Part shown: piece after piece, positions 9,021-22,458 of the stretch
Numbering within the stretch: the stretch's first letter is position 1
Layout of the letters: every line of letters starts with the position of its first letter
DNA from: Myxococcota bacterium
Lineage (GTDB): Bacteria; Myxococcota_A; UBA796; GCA-2862545
Direction: 5' to 3'
Assembly: GCA_039208735.1 (NCBI GenBank)
Contig: JBCCQY010000140.1
Location: 1 to 25,293, forward strand
DNA: 25,293 nt
Notes under the pieces: generated by a model
The model's input: the letters and a program-made list of their open reading frames with translations, nothing else
Database searches by the model: none
Told to the model about the DNA's origin: nothing
Translations under genes and position numbers: made by a program

Positions 9021-11120
9021 ATGGACAACGCGGACGTTGCCGCCGTCTTCACCGAAATGGCGGACCTTACCCAGATCGTCGGGGGCAATCCCCACCGCAT
9101 TCGTTCGTTTCGACGCACGGCCCGCATCATCGAGTCGTTGCCCGACGAAGTGGCCACGATGATCAAATACGGCACCCTCGACCGCGTGCCGGGCATCGGC
9201 CCAGGCAGCTTGCGAAGGGTCAAAGACATCCTGCGCACTGGCACCACCGACGACCACCGTCGACTTCGCCAACAGCTCCCGCCTGGCCTCCGTGAACTGC
9301 TGGATGTCAAGGGCATCGGGGCCCCCACCGCACGTCGACTCTGGCAGCAGCTGAAGATCGGCAGCATCGATCAACTCGAGTGGGCCATTCGCGCCGGAGC
9401 GGTACGAAACCTACCGCGAATGGGTCAGCGAACCTCGGAAAAGCTGCTCAAAGCGATCCGAGACCACCGGCTCCGCATCGGCCGGGTGCCGTGGGTCGAG
9501 TCTCGCCGACTAGGGCAGCGCTTGGTGGACGGGCTCCTCGACCGGGCACCGATCGTGGCCGCAACCTTAGCCGGGAGCGTGCGACGGGGAAAAGCCACGA
9601 TCCGCGACATTGACGTGCTCGTCGCGAGCGAGCGCGGCGCCGAGGTCACGGCCACGTTCGCCACGTTGCCCGAGGTCGAAGAGGTGCTCATCCGCGGCGA
9701 AGGGCGTTGCAGCGTGCGCCTGTTCAACCGACAGCAAGCGGACCTTCGCGTGCTCCCACCCGACAATTGGGGCGCCGGCATGCACTATTTCACCGGGAGT
9801 AAGCTTCACAACATCGCGGTGCGAGTCCGCGGTCTGAAGGTGGCCGGACTCAAGATCTCCGACAAGGGCATTTTCCTGCGAGACACCGAAATCCGGGTCC
9901 ACAGTGCCCCCAACGAGGTCGACGTCTTCACAGCCGCGCGTCTCCCCTTCATCGAGCCTGCGATTCGCGAGAACACAGGCGAAGTCGAAGCCGCCGCCGC
10001 CGGACGATTGCCGCGCCTCATCACGGGGCGGGACCTCGCCGGTGACCTGCACATGCACACCCTGGCGAGTGATGGCCGCGGCACCGCGCAAGCGATGGCC
10101 GAGGCCGCGATGCGCCTCGGTCATCGCTACATCGCAATCACCGACCATACCCAATCCCTCACCCTGGCCAACGGGCTCGACGAACGCAGGCTCCTCTCCC
10201 AGGGGCGGCACCTGCGTGATCTCGAAGATCGCCTTGGAACCCTTCGGATCGCACGAGGGGTTGAGGTCGACATCCTGGCCGATGGTTCGCTCGACCTTGA
10301 CGAGGGCATCCTTCGCGAGCTCGATTGGGTCGTGGCCAGCGTCCATTCTCACCTGGACATGGATGGGGACAGCATGACCGACCGGCTCATCGCGGCCATC
10401 GAGTCAGGCGTAGTGGATTGCATTGGGCACCCCCTGGGCCGCCGCCTCGGCGACCGCGCGGCCGCCGATCTTGATCTCGGAAGGCTCCTTCAAGCGGCGC
10501 GACGGGCGGGCGTCGCCCTCGAGATCAACGGAAACCCCTACCGCATGGATCTCGACGACATCGGATGTCGCCGCGCAAAGGAAATGGGAGTGGCCCTGTG
10601 TCTCAACACCGATGCGCACGCTCCTGACCACCTCGCTCGGCAGGAGTTCGGAGTCATCACTGCGCAGCGTGGCTGGATCGAACCCACGGACGTGCTGAAT
10701 ACTCGCAACTGGACCATCATCGCGGATCGTCGACGAGACCGGTTCCGCACGCGGGGCGTCGCCGTTGGATTGGGAGCCGCCTCGGGGGTGTTTGATACGC
10801 AGGTGCATACCGGCGATCCCACGCTCGCGGACCACCATTGGCCCGAGCACACACCGGTCCGATCCACACCGAAAGACTCGGGCGATGGCCCTCCGGTGGA
10901 CGTCGATGACGCCCCCATCGATGAAGCTGTGGATGACGCCGACGAAGTATCGGTCAGGTCGCTGAACGCGCGCCCGCTCGCCGCTCACCTTCGCCTACGG
11001 ATCGAGACGTGGCTGCGCCAAGGCGAAGACGAACCGCTCGAAGAAGCGCTGAAGCGACTGGGGGATAACCCGATGCAAACCGCATTCGACCTTCTCTTTA
11101 CCAATCCCGCGGAGGAATGA
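9021..11120 (+). CDS. polX: DNA polymerase X family / PHP 3'-5' exonuclease
   Basis: MDNADVAAVFTEMADL, HhH motifs VPGIG and VKGIG, AGSVRRGK..IRDIDVL and QADLRV catalytic Asp residues, HYFTGSKLHN; PHP motifs DLHMHT.ASDG, ITDH, GVEVDI, ASVH, IGHP, LEIN, NTDAH. Confidence 0.95.
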   Translation: MDNADVAAVFTEMADLTQIVGGNPHRIRSFRRTARIIESLPDEVATMIKYGTLDRVPGIGPGSLRRVKDILRTGTTDDHRRLRQQLPPGLRELLDVKGIGAPTARRLWQQLKIGSIDQLEWAIRAGAVRNLPRMGQRTSEKLLKAIRDHRLRIGRVPWVESRRLGQRLVDGLLDRAPIVAATLAGSVRRGKATIRDIDVLVASERGAEVTATFATLPEVEEVLIRGEGRCSVRLFNRQQADLRVLPPDNWGAGMHYFTGSKLHNIAVRVRGLKVAGLKISDKGIFLRDTEIRVHSAPNEVDVFTAARLPFIEPAIRENTGEVEAAAAGRLPRLITGRDLAGDLHMHTLASDGRGTAQAMAEAAMRLGHRYIAITDHTQSLTLANGLDERRLLSQGRHLRDLEDRLGTLRIARGVEVDILADGSLDLDEGILRELDWVVASVHSHLDMDGDSMTDRLIAAIESGVVDCIGHPLGRRLGDRAAADLDLGRLLQAARRAGVALEINGNPYRMDLDDIGCRRAKEMGVALCLNTDAHAPDHLARQEFGVITAQRGWIEPTDVLNTRNWTIIADRRRDRFRTRGVAVGLGAASGVFDTQVHTGDPTLADHHWPEHTPVRSTPKDSGDGPPVDVDDAPIDEAVDDADEVSVRSLNARPLAAHLRLRIETWLRQGEDEPLEEALKRLGDNPMQTAFDLLFTNPAEE

Positions 11121-13251: not shown

Positions 13252-16131
13252 CTACCGACGGACATCGCGATCCCGCGTGGCGGACTGGCCTTGCAAGATG
13301 AGGCCAATGAACACTCCAAGGAAAAGCGCCAGACTGCTCCACAGCACCAACGTGGGGATGGCATTGGGTCCGGGCAGCTTCTTGAGCGTGGCCATGGCGA
13401 TGGCCGACACGAAGAGGCTGACCGCAGAGGCCTGTACGAAAGTGGGCAAGGCTCGTACGGCCAACCGGGCGTACCGCCGTTGGGGACTCTCGCTCGTTTG
13501 GGGAACCCGAGGAGCGAGGTCGGATAGCAGAAGGCCAAAGCTCGCAAGCAGCGTGAGGCCTACCGTGGCGGCATAGCCCCACCAGGCTTCCTTTTCGACC
13601 AATGCAAGCCAGCTTTCCCCTACGTCCAAAACAAGGAACGTGCCCCCGCCGACCGCCGCAAACAACGGCATCAGGTAGCTGAACCGGCTGGGCAAGTCGC
13701 AGCGGTCGGCCACGGTGCGCCGCAGCATTGCGGCATCCCGAAACCGGAGCTGACCGAGGAAGTTTAGATGGACCCGTCGGATCTCGTCGACCGGCAACAA
13801 CGCCAACTGGTCGCGGTCCCGAATCATGGCGCCAATGCCCTTATCATCGGCGGTTTCCATGAGTCGATGGAGCTGCTTGACCGCGGCCGCGGACTGTCGA
13901 CCATGGGCGAGCGCTTCCTCAGACCGACCCTCGAGGCGTTCGAGCAGCGTGTCCATCAATCGCTTCTCGGGCCATCCCAACGTACCGACTTTGGTCTGGA
14001 GAGCCTTTGCGGCAGCCACCAGCTCCTCATGCTGGTCGACCGTGACCGTGGGCTGGGCCGAACGGAGCATCGTTACAGCGGTGCGCAAGCGCCCCAACGC
14101 ACGTTCGGTGCCTCGTCGACGTTCGGCGAGTTCGCCCCTTGGTCCGCGAGGACGACCTCCGATCGCCAGTTCCCGTGTATTGATGCTCAGCGAATCGTCC
14201 CGGTTGCCGAGCCCCGCTTCTTCCTCGGCGGTCAGCCCAAGCCACCACCCCCAACCCACCAAGCCTCCTCGCGGATCGCGGCCGATCACCACGTCTTCCA
14301 GCCGCCCAAACCAGTTCGGATCGGCCAGCGGATCGGTGTCGTGATCGACGGCGGCGAGGAATGCGTTGGCCAATTGGTCAAGGGCATCTCGACCTTGGTG
14401 GTTGTCTTTCAAAATAACCTTAGTACATCGAACCAAATCGGCGAACGCCTTCGCGATTTCCTCAATCCCCGACCCCTCATCGCGGTGTCGGTCGAGCGTG
14501 CTCACGGAATTGACCATCGCGTGCAGCGGAGTGTCCTCTCCGGCATCGGACGGCGGCTCTTGGGTAGGCAACGCAAAATCGGTGCGCAGAACCAACCCAA
14601 GCTCCTGAAAGGTCTTGTAGGGCGGATCCTGCTGCAGCAGCTGCCAAAGAAAGCGGACCCGGTCACTGTCTTTGGTGGCCTCCCGCAAGATTCGTTCGGT
14701 TTGGACCGCCACCTGACCCGCGATGAACCCGTCCTGCAGCCGGCCAAGCGCCAACACGTGTTGAGGCGAAAGCTCGACGTCGCGCATCAGCGTGCGACTC
14801 GTCAAGCGGCGCTCCGCCAACAGCCCACAGAGGCTCGGCTCGGCCACCTCGGCCACCGTGCCCTCGAGCATGCCGAGCTGGGAGTCATCGATGGCAAGCC
14901 GCACAAGCGAGCCCCAAGGCAGCGACTGCGCCTCGGGCAGGTGCATCCACAGGCGAATCTCGGCGAGGAGGCTCGCGAGCTGCGGCTTGGCGGTCACGGC
15001 CAGGCGGTCGCGGTTGAGCAGGCGTTCGAGCCGTTCGACCAAGATCTCGGTCACCACGCCCTCAGGCACCATGCCCAGCCGCAAGGTCAGCGCATCGATG
15101 GCCACGCCTGCCGATTCGCGCATGGTCTCCAGCGCGGCGTCGTCCCCTGCCGCCTGGAACCAGGCCGCGGTATTCAGCCACTCCCACAGCGCATCCACCC
15201 GACCGGGCTTCCAGCGGGGTTTGAGCAGGGACGCTCGGATCGCGTCTCGGGCCCCTCCGGGCGGCAGGGCATCATGGAGTCCTCGGAACGCCGATTCCGT
15301 CAATTCTTCGGCGCCAACTTCGTTGCTGCGCGCGACGAGGGCCGATTCCATTACCTCTCGATGCGGGCCCACCAACTCCGTCAGCGCCATCACGATCACC
15401 GAGCGGTCAGCGTCGTCCCGGGGCAGGGCCATCGAGGCGAGCCAATCCGGATCAATACCTGCCAACTCTGGATCTCCGCCCACCGCCCGCCAACAGCAGC
15501 CCAAAAAGAGCGTGTGCCGGATGAGGTGAACCGCCTTGGTGCCCCCGTCGAACAAGGTTCGGCGCGCTGAGGACAGCCCGGTCTTCGGCCATTGGGTCAC
15601 CGGGTTGGGAAAGCACATCGCCCAAAGCCGCCGCAGCCGTTCCCGCAGCTCGTCGTCCTCTAGCGCGAGCCGGGCCCAAGCCCGACATGCCTCGGGCCAC
15701 GTCTGTCGGCGACGAATCTGGAACGCGACCCCAATAAGGCGACGCACGCGATCATCCACCACCGGGGGGTGTTGCCAAAAGATCCGGCACCACGTGACAA
15801 GTTCGCTCTCCGACATGACGAACGGTGCATCGTGGGGCCACACCCCCATCGCCTGGTCGCCAAGTAAGGGCCTGAAGACTTGCGCCGCCTCGAAGTTGTC
15901 GTCACGAGATAGCCAGCTTGCGAGCGACCGCGGCTGTCGTTTGGCGTTGGCATACAACTCACAGGCCTTCGCCAAACCGCGCAATACCGGCGGGGCCCCC
16001 GCCCCCAACCGTAGGCGTTCTTGGGCCTGCACGGCCCCTCGAAGGTCCATGGCCTCGGCTTCATCGCCCTGCCAGGCGACCAGCCGGTCCGCCAGGCTCA
16101 GCGCTGGCTGCGATTCACTTGCGGCGGACAC
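13252..16131 (-). CDS. Large hypothetical protein (959 aa), helical with about four C-terminal TM helices
   Basis: Long ORF with protein-like composition; GTG start overlaps the upstream ATPase gene by 17 bp; four hydrophobic segments in the last ~145 aa; no enzymatic motif recognised. Confidence 0.8.
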   Translation of the reverse strand: MSAASESQPALSLADRLVAWQGDEAEAMDLRGAVQAQERLRLGAGAPPVLRGLAKACELYANAKRQPRSLASWLSRDDNFEAAQVFRPLLGDQAMGVWPHDAPFVMSESELVTWCRIFWQHPPVVDDRVRRLIGVAFQIRRRQTWPEACRAWARLALEDDELRERLRRLWAMCFPNPVTQWPKTGLSSARRTLFDGGTKAVHLIRHTLFLGCCWRAVGGDPELAGIDPDWLASMALPRDDADRSVIVMALTELVGPHREVMESALVARSNEVGAEELTESAFRGLHDALPPGGARDAIRASLLKPRWKPGRVDALWEWLNTAAWFQAAGDDAALETMRESAGVAIDALTLRLGMVPEGVVTEILVERLERLLNRDRLAVTAKPQLASLLAEIRLWMHLPEAQSLPWGSLVRLAIDDSQLGMLEGTVAEVAEPSLCGLLAERRLTSRTLMRDVELSPQHVLALGRLQDGFIAGQVAVQTERILREATKDSDRVRFLWQLLQQDPPYKTFQELGLVLRTDFALPTQEPPSDAGEDTPLHAMVNSVSTLDRHRDEGSGIEEIAKAFADLVRCTKVILKDNHQGRDALDQLANAFLAAVDHDTDPLADPNWFGRLEDVVIGRDPRGGLVGWGWWLGLTAEEEAGLGNRDDSLSINTRELAIGGRPRGPRGELAERRRGTERALGRLRTAVTMLRSAQPTVTVDQHEELVAAAKALQTKVGTLGWPEKRLMDTLLERLEGRSEEALAHGRQSAAAVKQLHRLMETADDKGIGAMIRDRDQLALLPVDEIRRVHLNFLGQLRFRDAAMLRRTVADRCDLPSRFSYLMPLFAAVGGGTFLVLDVGESWLALVEKEAWWGYAATVGLTLLASFGLLLSDLAPRVPQTSESPQRRYARLAVRALPTFVQASAVSLFVSAIAMATLKKLPGPNAIPTLVLWSSLALFLGVFIGLILQGQSATRDRDVRR

Positions 16132-17854
16132 TAAGCCCCTTCCCGTCGGTCGTCTGAAGCAGCACGACCGGCCCGTCGATATCGGGCAGCGGCTGCCCTC
16201 CGACGTCCTGAATGTTGTCGACGATCAGCGGGATCCATTCGCGTTCAAGAACCCTGCGAATGGCAGCGCGGAGCCACATGTCAGCGACCACCTGGCGGCC
16301 CCGACTCGCCAACCACCACGGTCGCTTGTCGATCAGCACTTCGACGGCCGGATTGTCGCCAAACTCCAGTGTAACGGGGCCCAAATCACCTAGGGCGAGG
16401 GCCTGCCGCTCCGCCACGCCCGACGGCGCCGCTCGCACCGCATCGAGCAGTGCCGAGAACCGCTCGAACTCCCGCGCTGCATCCGCCTGTCGCTGGGACT
16501 CCCGCTCGACGGTGGCCTTGGCCGTCTCCACATCGGCCTTCCACTGCGAAAACGCGCCTTCAAAGGTTGCGGACGCACGAAGCGTCGCTTGGGCCTTGGT
16601 GAGGAGATCCGGATCGGGCCGCGGCACCTGTGGCCTGGCGGGTGCATCATCCGGCACGTCCGGCAAGGCAGGCTCGTCACCAAGCCGCTTCAACTGATCA
16701 CGCCACGAAGCCCGCTTCAACGTGGCTTCTCGAGCCTGGGCAGCAAACTCGGACGCAACTTGAAGTTCTTGATTGGAGGCTTGGTACTTGGTGTTGGCAT
16801 CATCGAATGTCGCCTGCACCTGGATCTGGAACGTCTGCAGCTGCTGGACGTACTGCTGCCCGGCTTCCCACCCCGGTCGACGACACGTGGGGCAAATGGT
16901 AGGATCGATGCCTTGAAACTGCTGCAGCTGGGTTGCCACGGTCTGGTATTGGCCGTAGGCCTGCTGGTAGACCTGCATCGCCTGACTGGCCGCCCACTGC
17001 GCCTGCTGAAGCCGCTGGTCCGCCCCGGTAAATGCTTCGTCCCACGCAGGTTCATCGCCGAGCGCCGTTCGGGACTCGCTCCACCGACGCAGGGCCTCTT
17101 CAGCGGCCGTGCGCAGGTCGCTCGCGCCGACTTTGCGATCGTACTCAGCCCATTGCGTCGCCGCCTCTAGCACCTCGGGATCGACGGCTTCGGCCTCATC
17201 GAGGGTGGGTTCGTTGGCGCGCAATGTGGCGAGCCGTTCGTCGGCGGCGTCGAGACGGCCCTGTGCTTCATCCCGAGCTTTTCGCGCAGCGAGACGCTTG
17301 GCCATCACCTCTTTTTCGGACAGCTCGGTCTCTCCGTCCTTTAGCTCTTGGCCGGCCTCGACCATGAGGCGCTCCACCTCGCCCCCTACATCGGCATCCG
17401 GAAGAATCGAGGTGAGCAGGTCACGGAACGGCCTTGCATTGCCCCCGACCATCGGCACCCACTCCATGGGCGCCAACACTACCCGCAACGTGTCGACGTT
17501 GCGGCCCAGGTCGCCGAGTGCATCGAGAAACTTCGCCTCGGTTGAATACTCCTCGGTCTCTTCGCCGATCGTGATGGATCGTTTTTGGGATCGTCCCCGC
17601 GTGACACTACGCCGAATTCGGCGTCCAGAGTCGAGAACCATCTCGACCACTGCTTTGGTCATTCCGTCGTGGATCGCCTCCGGGCGGAATTTTCCGCCCC
17701 AAGATCGCCCCCAAAGGCAGAACGTGATCGCTTCGAGGATCGATGTCTTGCCAGATTCGGAAGGACCCGTCACGACGGTACGTCCCGTCGGATTGAATTG
17801 GGCCGTGAAGTCCTTGTGGGGACCGAGACCGCTCACCGTGAGTTGCTGCAGCAT
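16115..17854 (-). CDS. Rad50/SbcC-like (SMC-type) ABC ATPase with zinc hook
   Basis: MLQQLTVSGLG..., Walker A GPSESGKTS followed by ILEAITFCLWG, coiled coils, central CPTC (res 321-324), signature-like ASRGRQ, Walker B PLIVDN. Confidence 0.88.
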   Translation of the reverse strand: MLQQLTVSGLGPHKDFTAQFNPTGRTVVTGPSESGKTSILEAITFCLWGRSWGGKFRPEAIHDGMTKAVVEMVLDSGRRIRRSVTRGRSQKRSITIGEETEEYSTEAKFLDALGDLGRNVDTLRVVLAPMEWVPMVGGNARPFRDLLTSILPDADVGGEVERLMVEAGQELKDGETELSEKEVMAKRLAARKARDEAQGRLDAADERLATLRANEPTLDEAEAVDPEVLEAATQWAEYDRKVGASDLRTAAEEALRRWSESRTALGDEPAWDEAFTGADQRLQQAQWAASQAMQVYQQAYGQYQTVATQLQQFQGIDPTICPTCRRPGWEAGQQYVQQLQTFQIQVQATFDDANTKYQASNQELQVASEFAAQAREATLKRASWRDQLKRLGDEPALPDVPDDAPARPQVPRPDPDLLTKAQATLRASATFEGAFSQWKADVETAKATVERESQRQADAAREFERFSALLDAVRAAPSGVAERQALALGDLGPVTLEFGDNPAVEVLIDKRPWWLASRGRQVVADMWLRAAIRRVLEREWIPLIVDNIQDVGGQPLPDIDGPVVLLQTTDGKGLSVRRK

Positions 17855-18003
17855 GTTCTACCAGGCGTTCGAAATGGCGGTGTACTCGATTAATGGGCCT
17901 CGGGTGGGTCCGCTGCCACGATGCGGACAACGACTGACCCCCTGGTCGCGACGAGCGACGCTACCCGATACGATTCTTGGCCGCGGCCCCCGGTGAACGA
18001 CTC

Positions 18004-20505
18004 ATGGACAGCACCCGCCTGATCGATCAGCTGATCCGAACCTCGTTCCCCCATCCCGTTGCCGCAACGTGGCATCGGGTGTCGTTGGTGACGTCCGATG
18101 CTGATCGCATCGATCGCCTGTTTGGAAGCCTTGAAGTCGTCATTCGACTGTTGGCGGCGTTTCTCCTTCCCGACTACCTGCGAGGGCCCGCCGACGAAGC
18201 GGTTGAACGCGCCCTTGCCAACCTCGAACGACCCTCGATGGGACACTGGGTCCAGCTGCTCCGGGCGCTGGTGAAGGCGCTCGCCAATCGTCGATTGTCG
18301 CCGTTCATGCCTGAGGTCGTGCCTTGGTACCTGACCAAGGGCCGCCCGAGCGACGTCGCCAAGCAGATCGACGAGTTGGTCCAGCTGCGCAACGAGCACG
18401 TGCATGGGCATCGCCTGGCCGCTGGAGAGCAAGAAGCTCGGGTCAACCACGTCATCGAGACACTGCGCACGGTTCTCGGGAAACTCGACTTTCTGGCTGG
18501 TTACCGACCGTTTCGCGTGATGACCAGCGAGCTGTCACGAAAGGGCGGCTTCGACGGCCGCGTCCAGTTCCTCACCGGGGTCGCCGCCCAGGCGGAACCG
18601 GTTCGAGCGCATTGGGAGTCCCAGCTGCTGGCGGATTGTGTCTACCTGGCTAAGCCCGACGGCTCGGCGGTCCTCGAGGTTTCACCATTCGTACAGGTGG
18701 TCCACGATGCGGGCCCTCGTGAAGATCGCGTGTTCATCGTGGCCGCGACCAAGAAGCACAAGAAGCTGCTGCTGAAGAACGACGTGACCGGAGGCGAAGT
18801 CTCTCGCCTGGTGGCCTCGGTCGACGGCGACATTGCGCTCGACCGCTGGCTCGAGCGTCGCCCCAAGGCCGAACTCCACAAAGACCATCCCAACGCCTCA
18901 CGGGAATTCCGGTCGGATGCCTTTCGCACGGGAGGGGCCGAGCTGCTCGGCGATCGGTTCGAGGTTCGAGGCCGCCTTGGTGAGGGCGGCATGGCGACCG
19001 TGTTTCACGTTTGGGACCAGTGGGACGAAGAAGAATTCGCACTCAAGGTGCTCCACCAACGGCTGTCGGACGATGCGCTGTTCCGCGAACGGTTCACGCG
19101 TGAAGCCCGCACGATGAAACGGCTGCACCATCCCCACATCATTCGGGTCCATGAAACTGCCCAAATCGATGACGGACGACTGTACCTGAAGATGCCGCTC
19201 ATCACCGGCGGCACCTTGCAAAACCGCGTCGATGCCGGACGGTCGCCCGTCGAGTTCGTGCGGCGGTGGGGCCTGCAGATGCTGTCGGCACTGGCCTACC
19301 TGCACGAAAAAGGCATCGTGCATCGCGACGTCAAGCCGTCCAACTTCCTCGTCGACGACCAAGAGAACGTCTACCTGACCGACTTTGGCATTGCCGTTCA
19401 GGACGATGATGTCCGACTCACCCGCACGTTGGAGCAAATGGGCTCCATGGCCTACATGTCGCCGGAGCAGCGACGGGGTGGTGACGTAGGCCCTCCGACC
19501 GATGTCTACAGCCTAGGGGTGGTGCTCCACGAACTCATCACCGGTAAGGCGGGCACGCATCCTCCAGGGCGCGGCATCGGGGGCGCCCTCGGTGCGCTGG
19601 TGCGGGCACTGGCGGTGGAAGATCCCGAAGAACGGCTCACCGCCAACGATGCGCAAGAGCGGCTCGGACGCATCCAACCCCCCGGCAAGCCACCCAAGCT
19701 CGTTCCTCCGCGACGCCCCACCGAAGTCCCCGACGTGGAGCCCGCGGAACTCCCCGAGATCGAAACGCTGCCTGTGCCTCCAGGACAATTCGAGATGGCC
19801 CCGGGGCGAACGGCCGAGTGCACGGTGCCCTTCGTGGTGACTCCACGGGTTTCGCGGTTGCTGTGGCACCGCGTGATGGACCTGCCCGACCCTCTCATCA
19901 CCCAAGAAGGCATCGATGAGGTGACGTGGTTGCAGGCGGTGGAGTTCTGCAATGCGCTGTCGCGGCGGCTCGATCTCATCGCACCCTACGCGTTGTCCGA
20001 TCTGCGACCCAAGAAGGCCTACACCATCGACGACATCGGCCGCATGCTCCTCCGCGTGCTCCCTGTGAAACGCCGTGACGCGGTGCTGGCCCAGTTTGGC
20101 ACCGAGGCCCTGCATGTCATGCAGTTCGAGCCCCAGCGGCTTGCCGAGGTCACGGGCATCGGCGTCAAGACCGCGGAGCGCTATGCCGCGCAATGGCCGC
20201 GGGATGCGTACTTTGTGCGCGACGTGGGGTGGGATCGCACCGCCGATGGGTTCCGGCTTCCCACCGAGGCCGAGTGGGTGCATGCGGTGCCCGAACCCGA
20301 ACCCGACGTCGATGACTGGGTCTGGGACGCAGACCCGGGACCCGCGGTGCAGAACGTGCCCACGCCACTTCCCGAAGGCCATGCCGTGGACCCGACTCGA
20401 GACGACGGGGTGCTCCGCATCGTACGGTCCCAAAAGGGCCGGGCCGTCCTCAAGCTCGATGGCCGACGGACCGGCTTAGGGTTCCGCGTCGTCCGCAATG
20501 CCTGA
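18004..20505 (+). CDS. Multidomain Hanks-type Ser/Thr kinase: HEPN-like N-domain, kinase, FGE/SUMF1-like domain with HhH insert
   Basis: LGEGGMATV, ALKVL, HRDVKPSN, TDFG, GSMAYMSPE, DVYSLG; FGE-like VTWLQAVEFCNALS, GFRLPTEAEW, DWVWD, LGFRVVR; LRNEHVHG; EVTGIGVKTAER. ATG 18004 preferred to TTG 17977. Confidence 0.9.
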   Translation: MDSTRLIDQLIRTSFPHPVAATWHRVSLVTSDADRIDRLFGSLEVVIRLLAAFLLPDYLRGPADEAVERALANLERPSMGHWVQLLRALVKALANRRLSPFMPEVVPWYLTKGRPSDVAKQIDELVQLRNEHVHGHRLAAGEQEARVNHVIETLRTVLGKLDFLAGYRPFRVMTSELSRKGGFDGRVQFLTGVAAQAEPVRAHWESQLLADCVYLAKPDGSAVLEVSPFVQVVHDAGPREDRVFIVAATKKHKKLLLKNDVTGGEVSRLVASVDGDIALDRWLERRPKAELHKDHPNASREFRSDAFRTGGAELLGDRFEVRGRLGEGGMATVFHVWDQWDEEEFALKVLHQRLSDDALFRERFTREARTMKRLHHPHIIRVHETAQIDDGRLYLKMPLITGGTLQNRVDAGRSPVEFVRRWGLQMLSALAYLHEKGIVHRDVKPSNFLVDDQENVYLTDFGIAVQDDDVRLTRTLEQMGSMAYMSPEQRRGGDVGPPTDVYSLGVVLHELITGKAGTHPPGRGIGGALGALVRALAVEDPEERLTANDAQERLGRIQPPGKPPKLVPPRRPTEVPDVEPAELPEIETLPVPPGQFEMAPGRTAECTVPFVVTPRVSRLLWHRVMDLPDPLITQEGIDEVTWLQAVEFCNALSRRLDLIAPYALSDLRPKKAYTIDDIGRMLLRVLPVKRRDAVLAQFGTEALHVMQFEPQRLAEVTGIGVKTAERYAAQWPRDAYFVRDVGWDRTADGFRLPTEAEWVHAVPEPEPDVDDWVWDADPGPAVQNVPTPLPEGHAVDPTRDDGVLRIVRSQKGRAVLKLDGRRTGLGFRVVRNA

Positions 20506-21384: not shown

Positions 21385-21447
21385 CGATCCCCCATGGAAT
21401 CCCGGCTTCGCTCGCGGTATCTTCGGCACTCCCTCTCGAGGAGGCCC

Positions 21448-22458
21448 GTGCCGGACTGCTCACGCCGTAACCAACTCCTCGCCGCCCTACGGCGCAACCG
21501 CAACGACCCCCAGCCCTACCATGTCTATGCCGACTGGCTCTCCGAGGTCGGAGACCCCCACGGCGCCCTCATCGCAAGTCAACTCCACCAAGGCGACACG
21601 ATCGACGGGGTGAACCTCATTCCTGCGGATCGCGCGTGGTTGGCCCACCATGCTCCGTCCATCCTGGGGCGGTTCGGATGGTGGCTCGACGGCCAACACG
21701 ACCGCTCGGGCCGTGCGCTGCGATGGCGATGGGGATTTCTCGCCTCCGTGACCATCAGTGCCCGCTTTCAGCCGATCGACGCCATCGTTGATGCTGCACT
21801 AGCAAGTCCGGCCGCGGCCGTGTTGGACACCCTGACGATCGGGGCCCAAGGTGCGGCCAGCCCACCGATCTTGGATGCGCTCTGCCAAACCCCGATCCCA
21901 CTACTAACCATGCGATTTGGCGAGCTTGGCGATCCGGACGACCCCGCTTGGCGTAGGTTTCTAGGCCGTACCGATTGGCCGTTGCACACGCTTTCCGTCG
22001 GTGGCGGCTTTACCACCTCGCCAAGTGGCGCCCGCTTCATCGAACGTCTCGCCGAATCCACCTTGCTGCGCCAGCTTCGGGTGGTTCGCCTGCCGGGCCA
22101 CTTTCATCAGGCCACGCTGTTTTCAGGCGCGCTTGAAACCCACGCCGAGGCGTTTGCCCATCTCGACCAGTTGCAGCTCTACTGTTGGCCCGGACGCGAG
22201 TCGGTCCTCGAAGACCTGGCCGCTCGGCTCGGCAACATCGTGTGGCAGCGCGATCCGAACGTCTTTTTGCCGGTGACCGTCCGCGACCATCGCCACTTCG
22301 ATCCTCCGGTGGTCTGTCCCGAATGTACGACCTCGTTGAACCGCGCCTCACTCGAGAACGAACGGCTCATCTGCACCGCATGCGGCCGGTCGTTTCTCCC
22401 TCCGGTGACCTCAGGCGTGGGCCACCCCGGTCCGCCCGCGGCCCTTACGAGACCTTGA
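21448..22458 (+). CDS. TIGR02996 domain protein with LRR-like body and C-terminal zinc ribbon
   Basis: GAGGAGG RBS then GTG 21448; LLAALRRNRNDPQPYHVYADWLSEVGDPHGALIASQL; WRWGFL; LHTLSV, LRQLRVVRL, FAHLDQLQL; CPEC...CTAC. Confidence 0.85.
   Translation: MPDCSRRNQLLAALRRNRNDPQPYHVYADWLSEVGDPHGALIASQLHQGDTIDGVNLIPADRAWLAHHAPSILGRFGWWLDGQHDRSGRALRWRWGFLASVTISARFQPIDAIVDAALASPAAAVLDTLTIGAQGAASPPILDALCQTPIPLLTMRFGELGDPDDPAWRRFLGRTDWPLHTLSVGGGFTTSPSGARFIERLAESTLLRQLRVVRLPGHFHQATLFSGALETHAEAFAHLDQLQLYCWPGRESVLEDLAARLGNIVWQRDPNVFLPVTVRDHRHFDPPVVCPECTTSLNRASLENERLICTACGRSFLPPVTSGVGHPGPPAALTRP

Follow-up and report, generated by a model that had tools for sequence, protein, structure and literature searches.

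A RecD2-like helix-hairpin-helix repeat within the FGE-fold domain of a Hanks-type kinase family in Myxococcota, and its divergent Rad50/SbcC-like ATPase gene

The gene at the centre of this work lies on a 25,293-nucleotide contig of a Myxococcota bacterium (assembly GCA_039208735.1, contig JBCCQY010000140.1; the whole stretch, positions 1–25,293, is called the window below). It is an in-frame open reading frame (ORF; 18004–20505, + strand) encoding P0001, a protein of 833 amino acids (aa) that consists of (i) an HEPN-like N-terminal domain, (ii) a Hanks-type Ser/Thr kinase domain, (iii) a Pro-rich linker, and (iv) a domain with the fold of formylglycine-generating enzyme (FGE), into which a helix-hairpin-helix (HhH) module is inserted. 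The insert is homologous to the first N-terminal repeat of the helicase RecD2. Judged from sequence, it is a real, conserved graft in a new architecture, accompanied by a tightly linked, orphan Rad50-like ATPase gene.

A preliminary description of this DNA had proposed a RecD2-like HhH module within an FGE-like domain of a kinase; the linked ATPase gene and the HEPN-like N-terminal domain were both absent from it. The peptides quoted there are in frame in the ORF, with DAVLAQFG...AQW corresponding to residues 692–731 (20077–20196), and the RecD2-like identity of the module is borne out below by profile, reciprocal and structure comparisons, all of which agree.

A RecD2-type repeat inside an FGE-fold scaffold

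The C-terminal module of P0001 is built from the two halves of an FGE/C-type-lectin-fold scaffold (19750–19995 and 20215–20502, both + strand), between which lies the (HhH)2 insert (residues 668–737; 20005–20214, + strand). The insert had earlier been placed at 20030–20200, inside the FGE-fold domain as found here; its true extent is slightly wider (~20005–20214). The original estimate of about 70 extra residues depends on the reference: the excess is ~60 residues over the median FGE loop, and 72 over the shortest common class. Of the 11 family matches, 10 have 86 aa between a conserved Tyr and the GxRLP motif, and one has 106 aa. The median length of this spacer across 233 other FGE domains is 27 aa (range 11–61, apart from two at 138 and 142).

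The closest structural match of the modelled scaffold is TvpA (2y3c; Z 19.8, root-mean-square deviation (rmsd) 1.7, 169 residues; Foldseek E 3.5e-9), and CarF (Z 17.1) and PvdO (Z 15.0) are also matched. The C-terminal half retains RLPTEAEW and GFRVVR but has no GLxDMxGN segment. A CxxxxC pair and a GLxDMxGN segment are the motifs of formylglycine-generating enzyme; catalytic CxxxxC occurs in none of the 14 full-length family members, and GLxD[MLT]xGN in none of the 19 family proteins as against 121 of 149 other collected proteins. The scaffold has the FGE/C-type lectin fold without the enzyme's features, in line with the earlier impression of a pared-down domain.

The kinship of the insert with RecD2 emerges from several sequence searches. 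As the preliminary description had suggested it should, the insert alone (19996–20214) matches both HHH_RecD2 (E 0.0024, 18.2 bits) and HHH_5 (E 0.0025, 18.7 bits) in Pfam, with scores below the gathering cut-off of 27 bits that applies to each (PF14490 and PF14520); the first repeat of the same genome's RecD2 scores 25 against PF14490, also below 27. A Pfam search with the whole of P0001 places FGE-sulfatase, HHH_5 and HHH_RecD2 in the tail, all sub-cut-off. Among 18,950 NCBIfam models the insert has a single match, RecD2 (TIGR01448 positions 94–133, E 5e-4), and P0001, which has no RecD2 superfamily 1B helicase motor, matches TIGR01448 only at residues 693–733 (13 bits; cut-off 500). Profile-profile alignment (hhalign) of the insert family with ten RecD2 first repeats gives a probability of 99.0 (E 2.8e-18, 44 columns).

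Searching 61 related genomes with the tail returned weak insert matches in ORFs of ~710–1190 aa. Nine of these RecD2-like ORFs were checked together with the own genome's RecD2, and all ten score above the RecD2 cut-off; eight of the nine are 41–49% identical to the insert over 41–42 residues, reaching the W-x-R-D end of RecD2 repeat 1. Within the own genome, RecD2 is the best non-self match of the insert (E 0.0015; 55,646 six-frame ORFs). A viral scan with the insert yielded seven loci whose ORFs (745–777 aa) read as RecD2-like helicases (one Pfam-checked), and the FGE/HhH module is present at none of the seven. Viral RecD2-like helicases at L193 (4785–7019), L195 and L196 share with the insert a short first hairpin in their first HhH repeat. 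A feature search of the Atlas with the insert gave only FGE clusters, at the chance-level score of 0.8, and the automatic NCBI name of one family fragment already contains helix-hairpin-helix. In sum, the insert shares with the RecD2 N-terminal (HhH)2 repeat the segment FG-x-x-T-L...P-x-R-L-x-E-V-x-GIG-x-K...W-x-R-D and the predicted fold; it differs in being one repeat, lodged in another domain and unaccompanied by an OB fold, a helicase motor or an SH3 domain.

The predicted structure leads to the same identification. AlphaFold on the single sequence gave an unusable model (predicted local distance difference test (pLDDT) 42). With a 64-row alignment—24 family members, 10 RecD2 pieces and 30 FGE domains—the AlphaFold2 model of the module reached pLDDT 97.0 and a predicted template modelling score of 0.91; in it, two strands flank an insert that is helical. 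The modelled insert matches the (HhH)2 domain of topoisomerase V on DNA (Z 7.6, rmsd 2.3, 59 residues) and those of Hef (Z 7.1), FAAP24 (6.2), RuvA (6.1) and DisA (6.0), with ERCC1-XPF and the NusA AR domain also among the matches; these span Z 6.0–7.6, all below 8 and so a "possibly common arrangement" on the tool's scale, which is modest when taken alone. Since the AlphaFold2 alignment itself held RecD2 rows, the Atlas's independent model matters as a check: all ten of its structure rows are RecD2-family clusters (residues 670–736), with template modelling (TM) scores of 0.52–0.61, each below the tool's naming bar. Both models give the insert the HhH fold that had been predicted for it.

Chance or misassembly as the source of the insert is ruled out by its presence in 19 of 168 collected proteins. 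Its GC content at third codon positions (0.84) is close to that of the remainder of the gene (0.74–0.79). Consensus identity is 0.64 in the insert versus 0.49 and 0.55 in the FGE halves, and non-synonymous distance is lowest in the insert for 68 of 78 pairs (the pairs being non-independent); selection is concentrated on the insert, the best-conserved part of the module. These figures bear on whether the insert is simply a functionless passenger in an insertion-tolerant loop. The loop does vary from 11 to ~60 residues in ordinary FGE domains, but the insert is better conserved than its host domain and fixed in length, and the scaffold has lost its own functional segment; we regard a passenger as very improbable. 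Two divergent members, P0064 and P0077, have an extra basic insertion of ~20 residues within the HhH module, replacing the FG turn.

The kinase family and its divergent ATPase gene

Homologs of P0001 are 41–72% identical to it across the C-terminal part. The kinase domain (18955–19668, + strand) has an intact Gly loop, ALK, HRDxKPxN, DFG and SPE, and matches Pkinase in Pfam at residues 320–516 (148.5 bits, cut-off 31.7; E 3e-43); the corresponding motifs (Gly loop, catalytic Lys, HRDxKPxN, DFG, (A/S)PE) are intact in all 14 full-length family members. No transmembrane segment is evident in P0001, whose highest 19-residue hydropathy (1.61) falls in the N-terminal domain, and none of the 14 full-length proteins has a strong hydrophobic segment. 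The preliminary description was correct both in recognizing a kinase and in seeing no transmembrane segment, and hydropathy supports a soluble, cytoplasmic kinase without a membrane anchor.

The family is narrowly distributed. At least 14 members are among the best 150 matches in 1.84 billion representatives (all lengths covered), and the homologs come from sources named Myxococcota or Deltaproteobacteria; two shorter family matches are annotated as partial. Of the order's 154 genomes, 12 have a single full-length match apiece, across four genera and two families; 16 others exceed the threshold with partial matches alone. Among 401 genomes sampled from the phylum, three have a full-length match, all from the window's own family. 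A scan of genome contigs (2 of 64 parts) gave 79 loci, dominated by the common FGE pattern, of which one belongs to the family.

Among 93 own-genome paralogs, the family kinases fall in three separate places: type A (10 members), type B (7) and type C (1). Type A and type B kinases are 32–35% identical to each other, and type B kinases are 47–55% identical to other paralogs. Three kinase lineages stand in front of one module. Five of the 14 full-length members (P0004, P0005, P0007, P0031 and P0064) have an extra Trp-rich, GYF_2-like domain between kinase and module (Pfam E 3e-4 in P0031). At locus L142 (genome G070), the kinase gene contains frame breaks that reflect either assembly error or decay.

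The N-terminal domain of P0001 (~300 aa; 18004–18903, + strand) is found in type A members only. It carries an RNxxxHG motif (18388–18408), which is present in nine of the ten type A proteins. The RNase motif of HEPN domains is Rx4-6H with a polar residue after the R (PMC3710099; this and the sources below are cited from their accessible parts), and the Rx4-6H form is seen in nine of ten type A proteins and in all four paralogs at 35–37% identity. The sole Pfam matches of the domain are to two HEPN families, weakly (E 0.12–0.15) and in three and one of eight members; its profile has no useful match in the PDB. In the Atlas, the same fold (TM scores 0.66–0.83, in structure rows that carry no family name) is fused to Macro, type I restriction S subunit, N6 methylase, CHAT, HSP70 and NB-ARC. 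"HEPN-like" seems a fair label, and the domain a putative RNase. Of the 154 genomes, 37 encode this domain. The four paralogs retain the motif but end in other C-terminal domains. In paralogs L208, L209 and L210 (genus g10) the HEPN-like domain precedes a kinase without HRD and DFG and then other C-terminal domains; in L211 it precedes an intact kinase and a hydrophobic segment.

Divergent from the kinase gene is one for a Rad50/SbcC-like ATPase of 579 aa (16115–17854, − strand). The two start codons are separated by a spacer of 149 base pairs (bp; 17855–18003), presumably a shared promoter region. The ATPase has a Walker A motif (GPSESGKT), a central CPTC hook, a LASRGRQ signature and a VDN Walker B; Walker A, the central CxxC hook between coiled coils, the signature and the variant Walker B are conserved in 12 of 12 aligned sequences. 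The Walker B reads DN or DR, not DE, so hydrolysis is not assured. The protein matches AAA_23 (55.5 bits), and its best PDB match is Rad50 (E 0.001). No nuclease gene was found beside it, and there is no SbcD/Mre11 on its contig (C140). The possibility that it is the housekeeping SbcC was ruled out: the host's SbcD matches are on contigs C35 and C1, each adjoining an AAA_23 gene of its own.

The ATPase occurs in 21 of the 154 genomes, and the 12 best matches come from the 12 module genomes. Module and ATPase genes are head-to-head in all ten genome loci with upstream sequence, and on one metagenome contig; in G071 and G083 the module is found at the end of one contig, and the end of another has the ATPase facing the N-terminus of a type A protein. 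Start-to-start distances are 33–210 bp in 12 other loci, and the other flanking genes vary between genera. Trees of the module and of the ATPase share three groups with strong support—{G070, G071}, {G030, G081, G013, G002} and {G000, G001, G004, G083, G084, G085}—which cut across genus lines. A predicted complex of ATPase and module scored 0.01 (mark 0.32) and is evidence neither way. In G078, the ATPase lies directly 3', on the same strand, of a type B-like kinase tail (L157:1779–2480, − strand); that kinase has a hydrophobic segment at its end and no FGE module. The ATPase and 959-aa genes at L133 (G085) contain frame breaks, from either assembly error or decay.

The most distant ATPase relatives (G044, G098 and one viral contig) lie beside genes for RecT, a YqaJ-like or PD-(D/E)XK nuclease, and integrase, and the best phage family is phrog_1499 (E 2e-15). 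A phage origin of the ATPase is likely, with the direction deduced from these contexts. ATPase relatives in viral or prophage recombination modules, next to genes of these kinds, are at L200 (3971–5962), L175 (6102–7898), L169 (1088–2824) and L181 (7294–8382).

Three other genes of the window deserve mention. The first encodes a 959-aa protein of no family (13252–16131, − strand), which overlaps the ATPase stop and follows the ATPase in six genomes of one clade only. It has no match in Pfam, NCBIfam, PADLOC or PHROG; homologs occur in 15 of 154 genomes and are unlinked to the pair in genus g10. It is possibly an accessory gene. The second encodes a PolX with a PHP domain and an acidic C-terminal extension of ~130 aa (9021–11120, + strand). 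PolX was rejected as part of the system: it neighbours the pair in the window and G070, but of ten other genomes only G001 has it close by on the same contig. A second PolX copy, at a distance, is found in most of the relatives checked. The third (21418–22458, + strand) encodes a TIGR02996 repeat-companion protein with a C-terminal Cys cluster.

Candidate roles for the insert and the gene pair

In RuvA, ligase and Pol beta, HhH motifs bind the DNA backbone irrespective of sequence, and a kinase responsive to DNA is plausible here. The conservation of the HhH motif and the linkage to a Rad50-like ATPase gene lend this idea indirect support. We tentatively favour the reading that the soluble kinase docks on DNA via the insert and works with the ATPase in the surveillance of DNA ends or forks. 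In such a scheme, (i) the second hairpin would bind the DNA backbone without sequence preference, (ii) an ATPase dimer would recognize DNA ends or tether DNA, as Rad50, LmuB and RloC do, (iii) DNA docking would gather kinase molecules, leading to trans-autophosphorylation, (iv) the activated kinase would have the ATPase, or proteins of repair and recombination, as its substrate, and (v) in type A members the same clustering would dimerize the HEPN-like domain into a growth-slowing RNase. The outcome could be repair signalling or abortive defence; the HEPN-like domain and the patchy spread point to defence, but the housekeeping neighbourhood does not.

Several observations weigh against this reading, beyond the modest Z values and the RecD2 rows in the AlphaFold2 alignment. 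Firstly, the insert departs from a canonical DNA-binding pair: in all family rows the first hairpin lacks GhG, and it has four residues fewer than its counterpart in the order's RecD2; P0004 and P0028 carry acidic residues in place of the second motif's Gly and Lys; and the final 43 residues of the insert are close to neutral (net charge −3 to +4). In addition, the family-invariant residues, R670, D676, R680 and Q707 among them, include some that RecD2 does not share (Q707 and F708), which fits a protein-surface or packing role. Secondly, the RecD2 N-terminal region is itself called uncharacterised, its DNA binding only proposed (PMC12143592), and the accessible text of a HELB preprint (10.64898/2026.07.16.738708) adds nothing further on the HhH. 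Thirdly, the locus is surrounded by housekeeping genes and does not lie in a defence island. Finally, nine of the 21 ATPase genomes are without the module (four of these have other genes upstream of the ATPase), the ATPases of the module-less genomes are interspersed in the tree with those of linked pairs, the linked pairs are not independent and may descend from one ancestral locus, and adjacent genes vanish jointly from incomplete assemblies.

The first group of observations would suit an insert that binds protein, either in kinase dimerization as in Hef/XPF-ERCC1 or as a partner of RecD2 or the ATPase, with DNA not being the ligand. (HhH)2 domains such as those of Hef and XPF-ERCC1 also serve in protein pairing. 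Hef, ERCC1-XPF, FAAP24 and NusA AR domains are among the structural matches, and the Hef HhH is the only PDB sequence matched across the whole insert (E 0.42); the degenerate first hairpin, the neutral charge and the two acidic second hairpins point the same way. Yet the second HhH motif of P0001 (residues 713–727; 20140–20184, + strand) is intact, and the DNA-type signature G-I-G-x-K-T is retained in most members: in 24 family rows the two Gly are found in 23 and 22, Lys/Arg in 21 and Thr in 20 (G[IV]Gx[KR] in 21). Moreover, a viral RecD2-like helicase with an equally short first hairpin aligns to that of the insert without a gap, so shortening need not be decay. On balance, a purely protein-binding insert seems rather unlikely.

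The linkage observations raise a different possibility, that the kinase reads DNA via the insert but does so alone, in the manner of YabT, with the ATPase held next to it by a shared promoter or inertia. The ATPase genomes that do without the module are consistent with this, as is the divergent arrangement, in which the genes are not co-transcribed, and a single ancestral linkage could account for every case. Against such independence, the pair is kept at 43–46% ATPase identity while its flanks change and the kinase is replaced. Furthermore, G002, which belongs to the window's genus, carries a g10-type pair although its PolX is closer to that of the window's genome (74% versus 62–64%), which points to transfer as a unit. 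We judge a stand-alone kinase unlikely.

A more specific version of joint DNA surveillance by kinase and ATPase is a two-gene DNA-break alarm, in which a phage-derived, Rad50-like ATPase would hold DNA ends and thereby switch on a kinase with a RecD2 grip (plus, in type A, an HEPN RNase). We put this forward as speculation, and quite unlikely in this exact form.

Relation to known systems and significance

No published description of the kinase + FGE + HhH architecture, or of the kinase/ATPase gene pair, was found in a search of mostly open literature, with supplements outside its scope. Kinases with a C-terminal FGE-fold domain are listed for Proteo1 kinase families (10.1101/2025.01.12.632604). 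P0001 shares the kinase-then-FGE order with proteins that combine a kinase with FGE-sulfatase (SUMF1-like) and TvpA/CarF-type domains, but is without GLxDMxGN and the catalytic cysteines, and has an HhH module in a hairpin loop.

Other systems resemble parts of the proposed logic. YabT of Bacillus subtilis is a Hanks kinase that is activated by DNA via a DNA-binding part and is tied to DNA repair (PMC3708118); it is membrane-anchored, with a basic juxtamembrane region (PMC6333020), and the accessible parts of these reports describe no FGE, HhH or linked ATPase. In RloC, a Rad50-like coiled-coil/zinc-hook ATPase governs an HEPN nuclease in response to DNA (PMC3458546; PMC3710099). RloC is one polypeptide without a kinase, whereas here the ATPase and the HEPN-like domain are encoded by separate, divergent genes, not in the single chain expected of RloC or PrrC, and type B members have no HEPN-like domain. 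In Lamassu (LmuABC), a ~600-aa, SbcC-derived, SMC-like ATPase senses DNA ends and works with exchangeable effectors (10.1101/2025.04.02.646746; parts of the same logic in 10.1101/2025.03.14.643221). LmuB models match the ATPase of the window only in short stretches, nearly all N-terminal (the best at residues 16–99), and LmuA and LmuC have no match in the six proteins scanned; co-oriented genes would be expected, whereas these are divergent, and it is in phage RecT/YqaJ modules that the ATPase has its closest relatives. PglW of type 2 BREX combines a nuclease domain, a kinase and nucleic-acid-binding helical modules in one chain (PMC12839542), a domain order similar to that of P0001 with different effector and binding domains; no BREX genes were recognized nearby.

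YabT is a bacterial precedent for Hanks kinases activated by DNA, and in RloC and Lamassu Rad50-like sensors control nucleases. A kinase tied to a Rad50-like sensor would, if true, unite these two themes. Eukaryotic damage signalling also links Rad50 to a kinase, and the two-gene alarm, should it exist, would be the same logic reached independently. The family offers a lone RecD2 repeat that is under strong selection and carried by a small, confidently modelled scaffold, so that its function should be directly testable. The module is also a clear case of an FGE-fold domain converted from enzyme or receptor to display scaffold.

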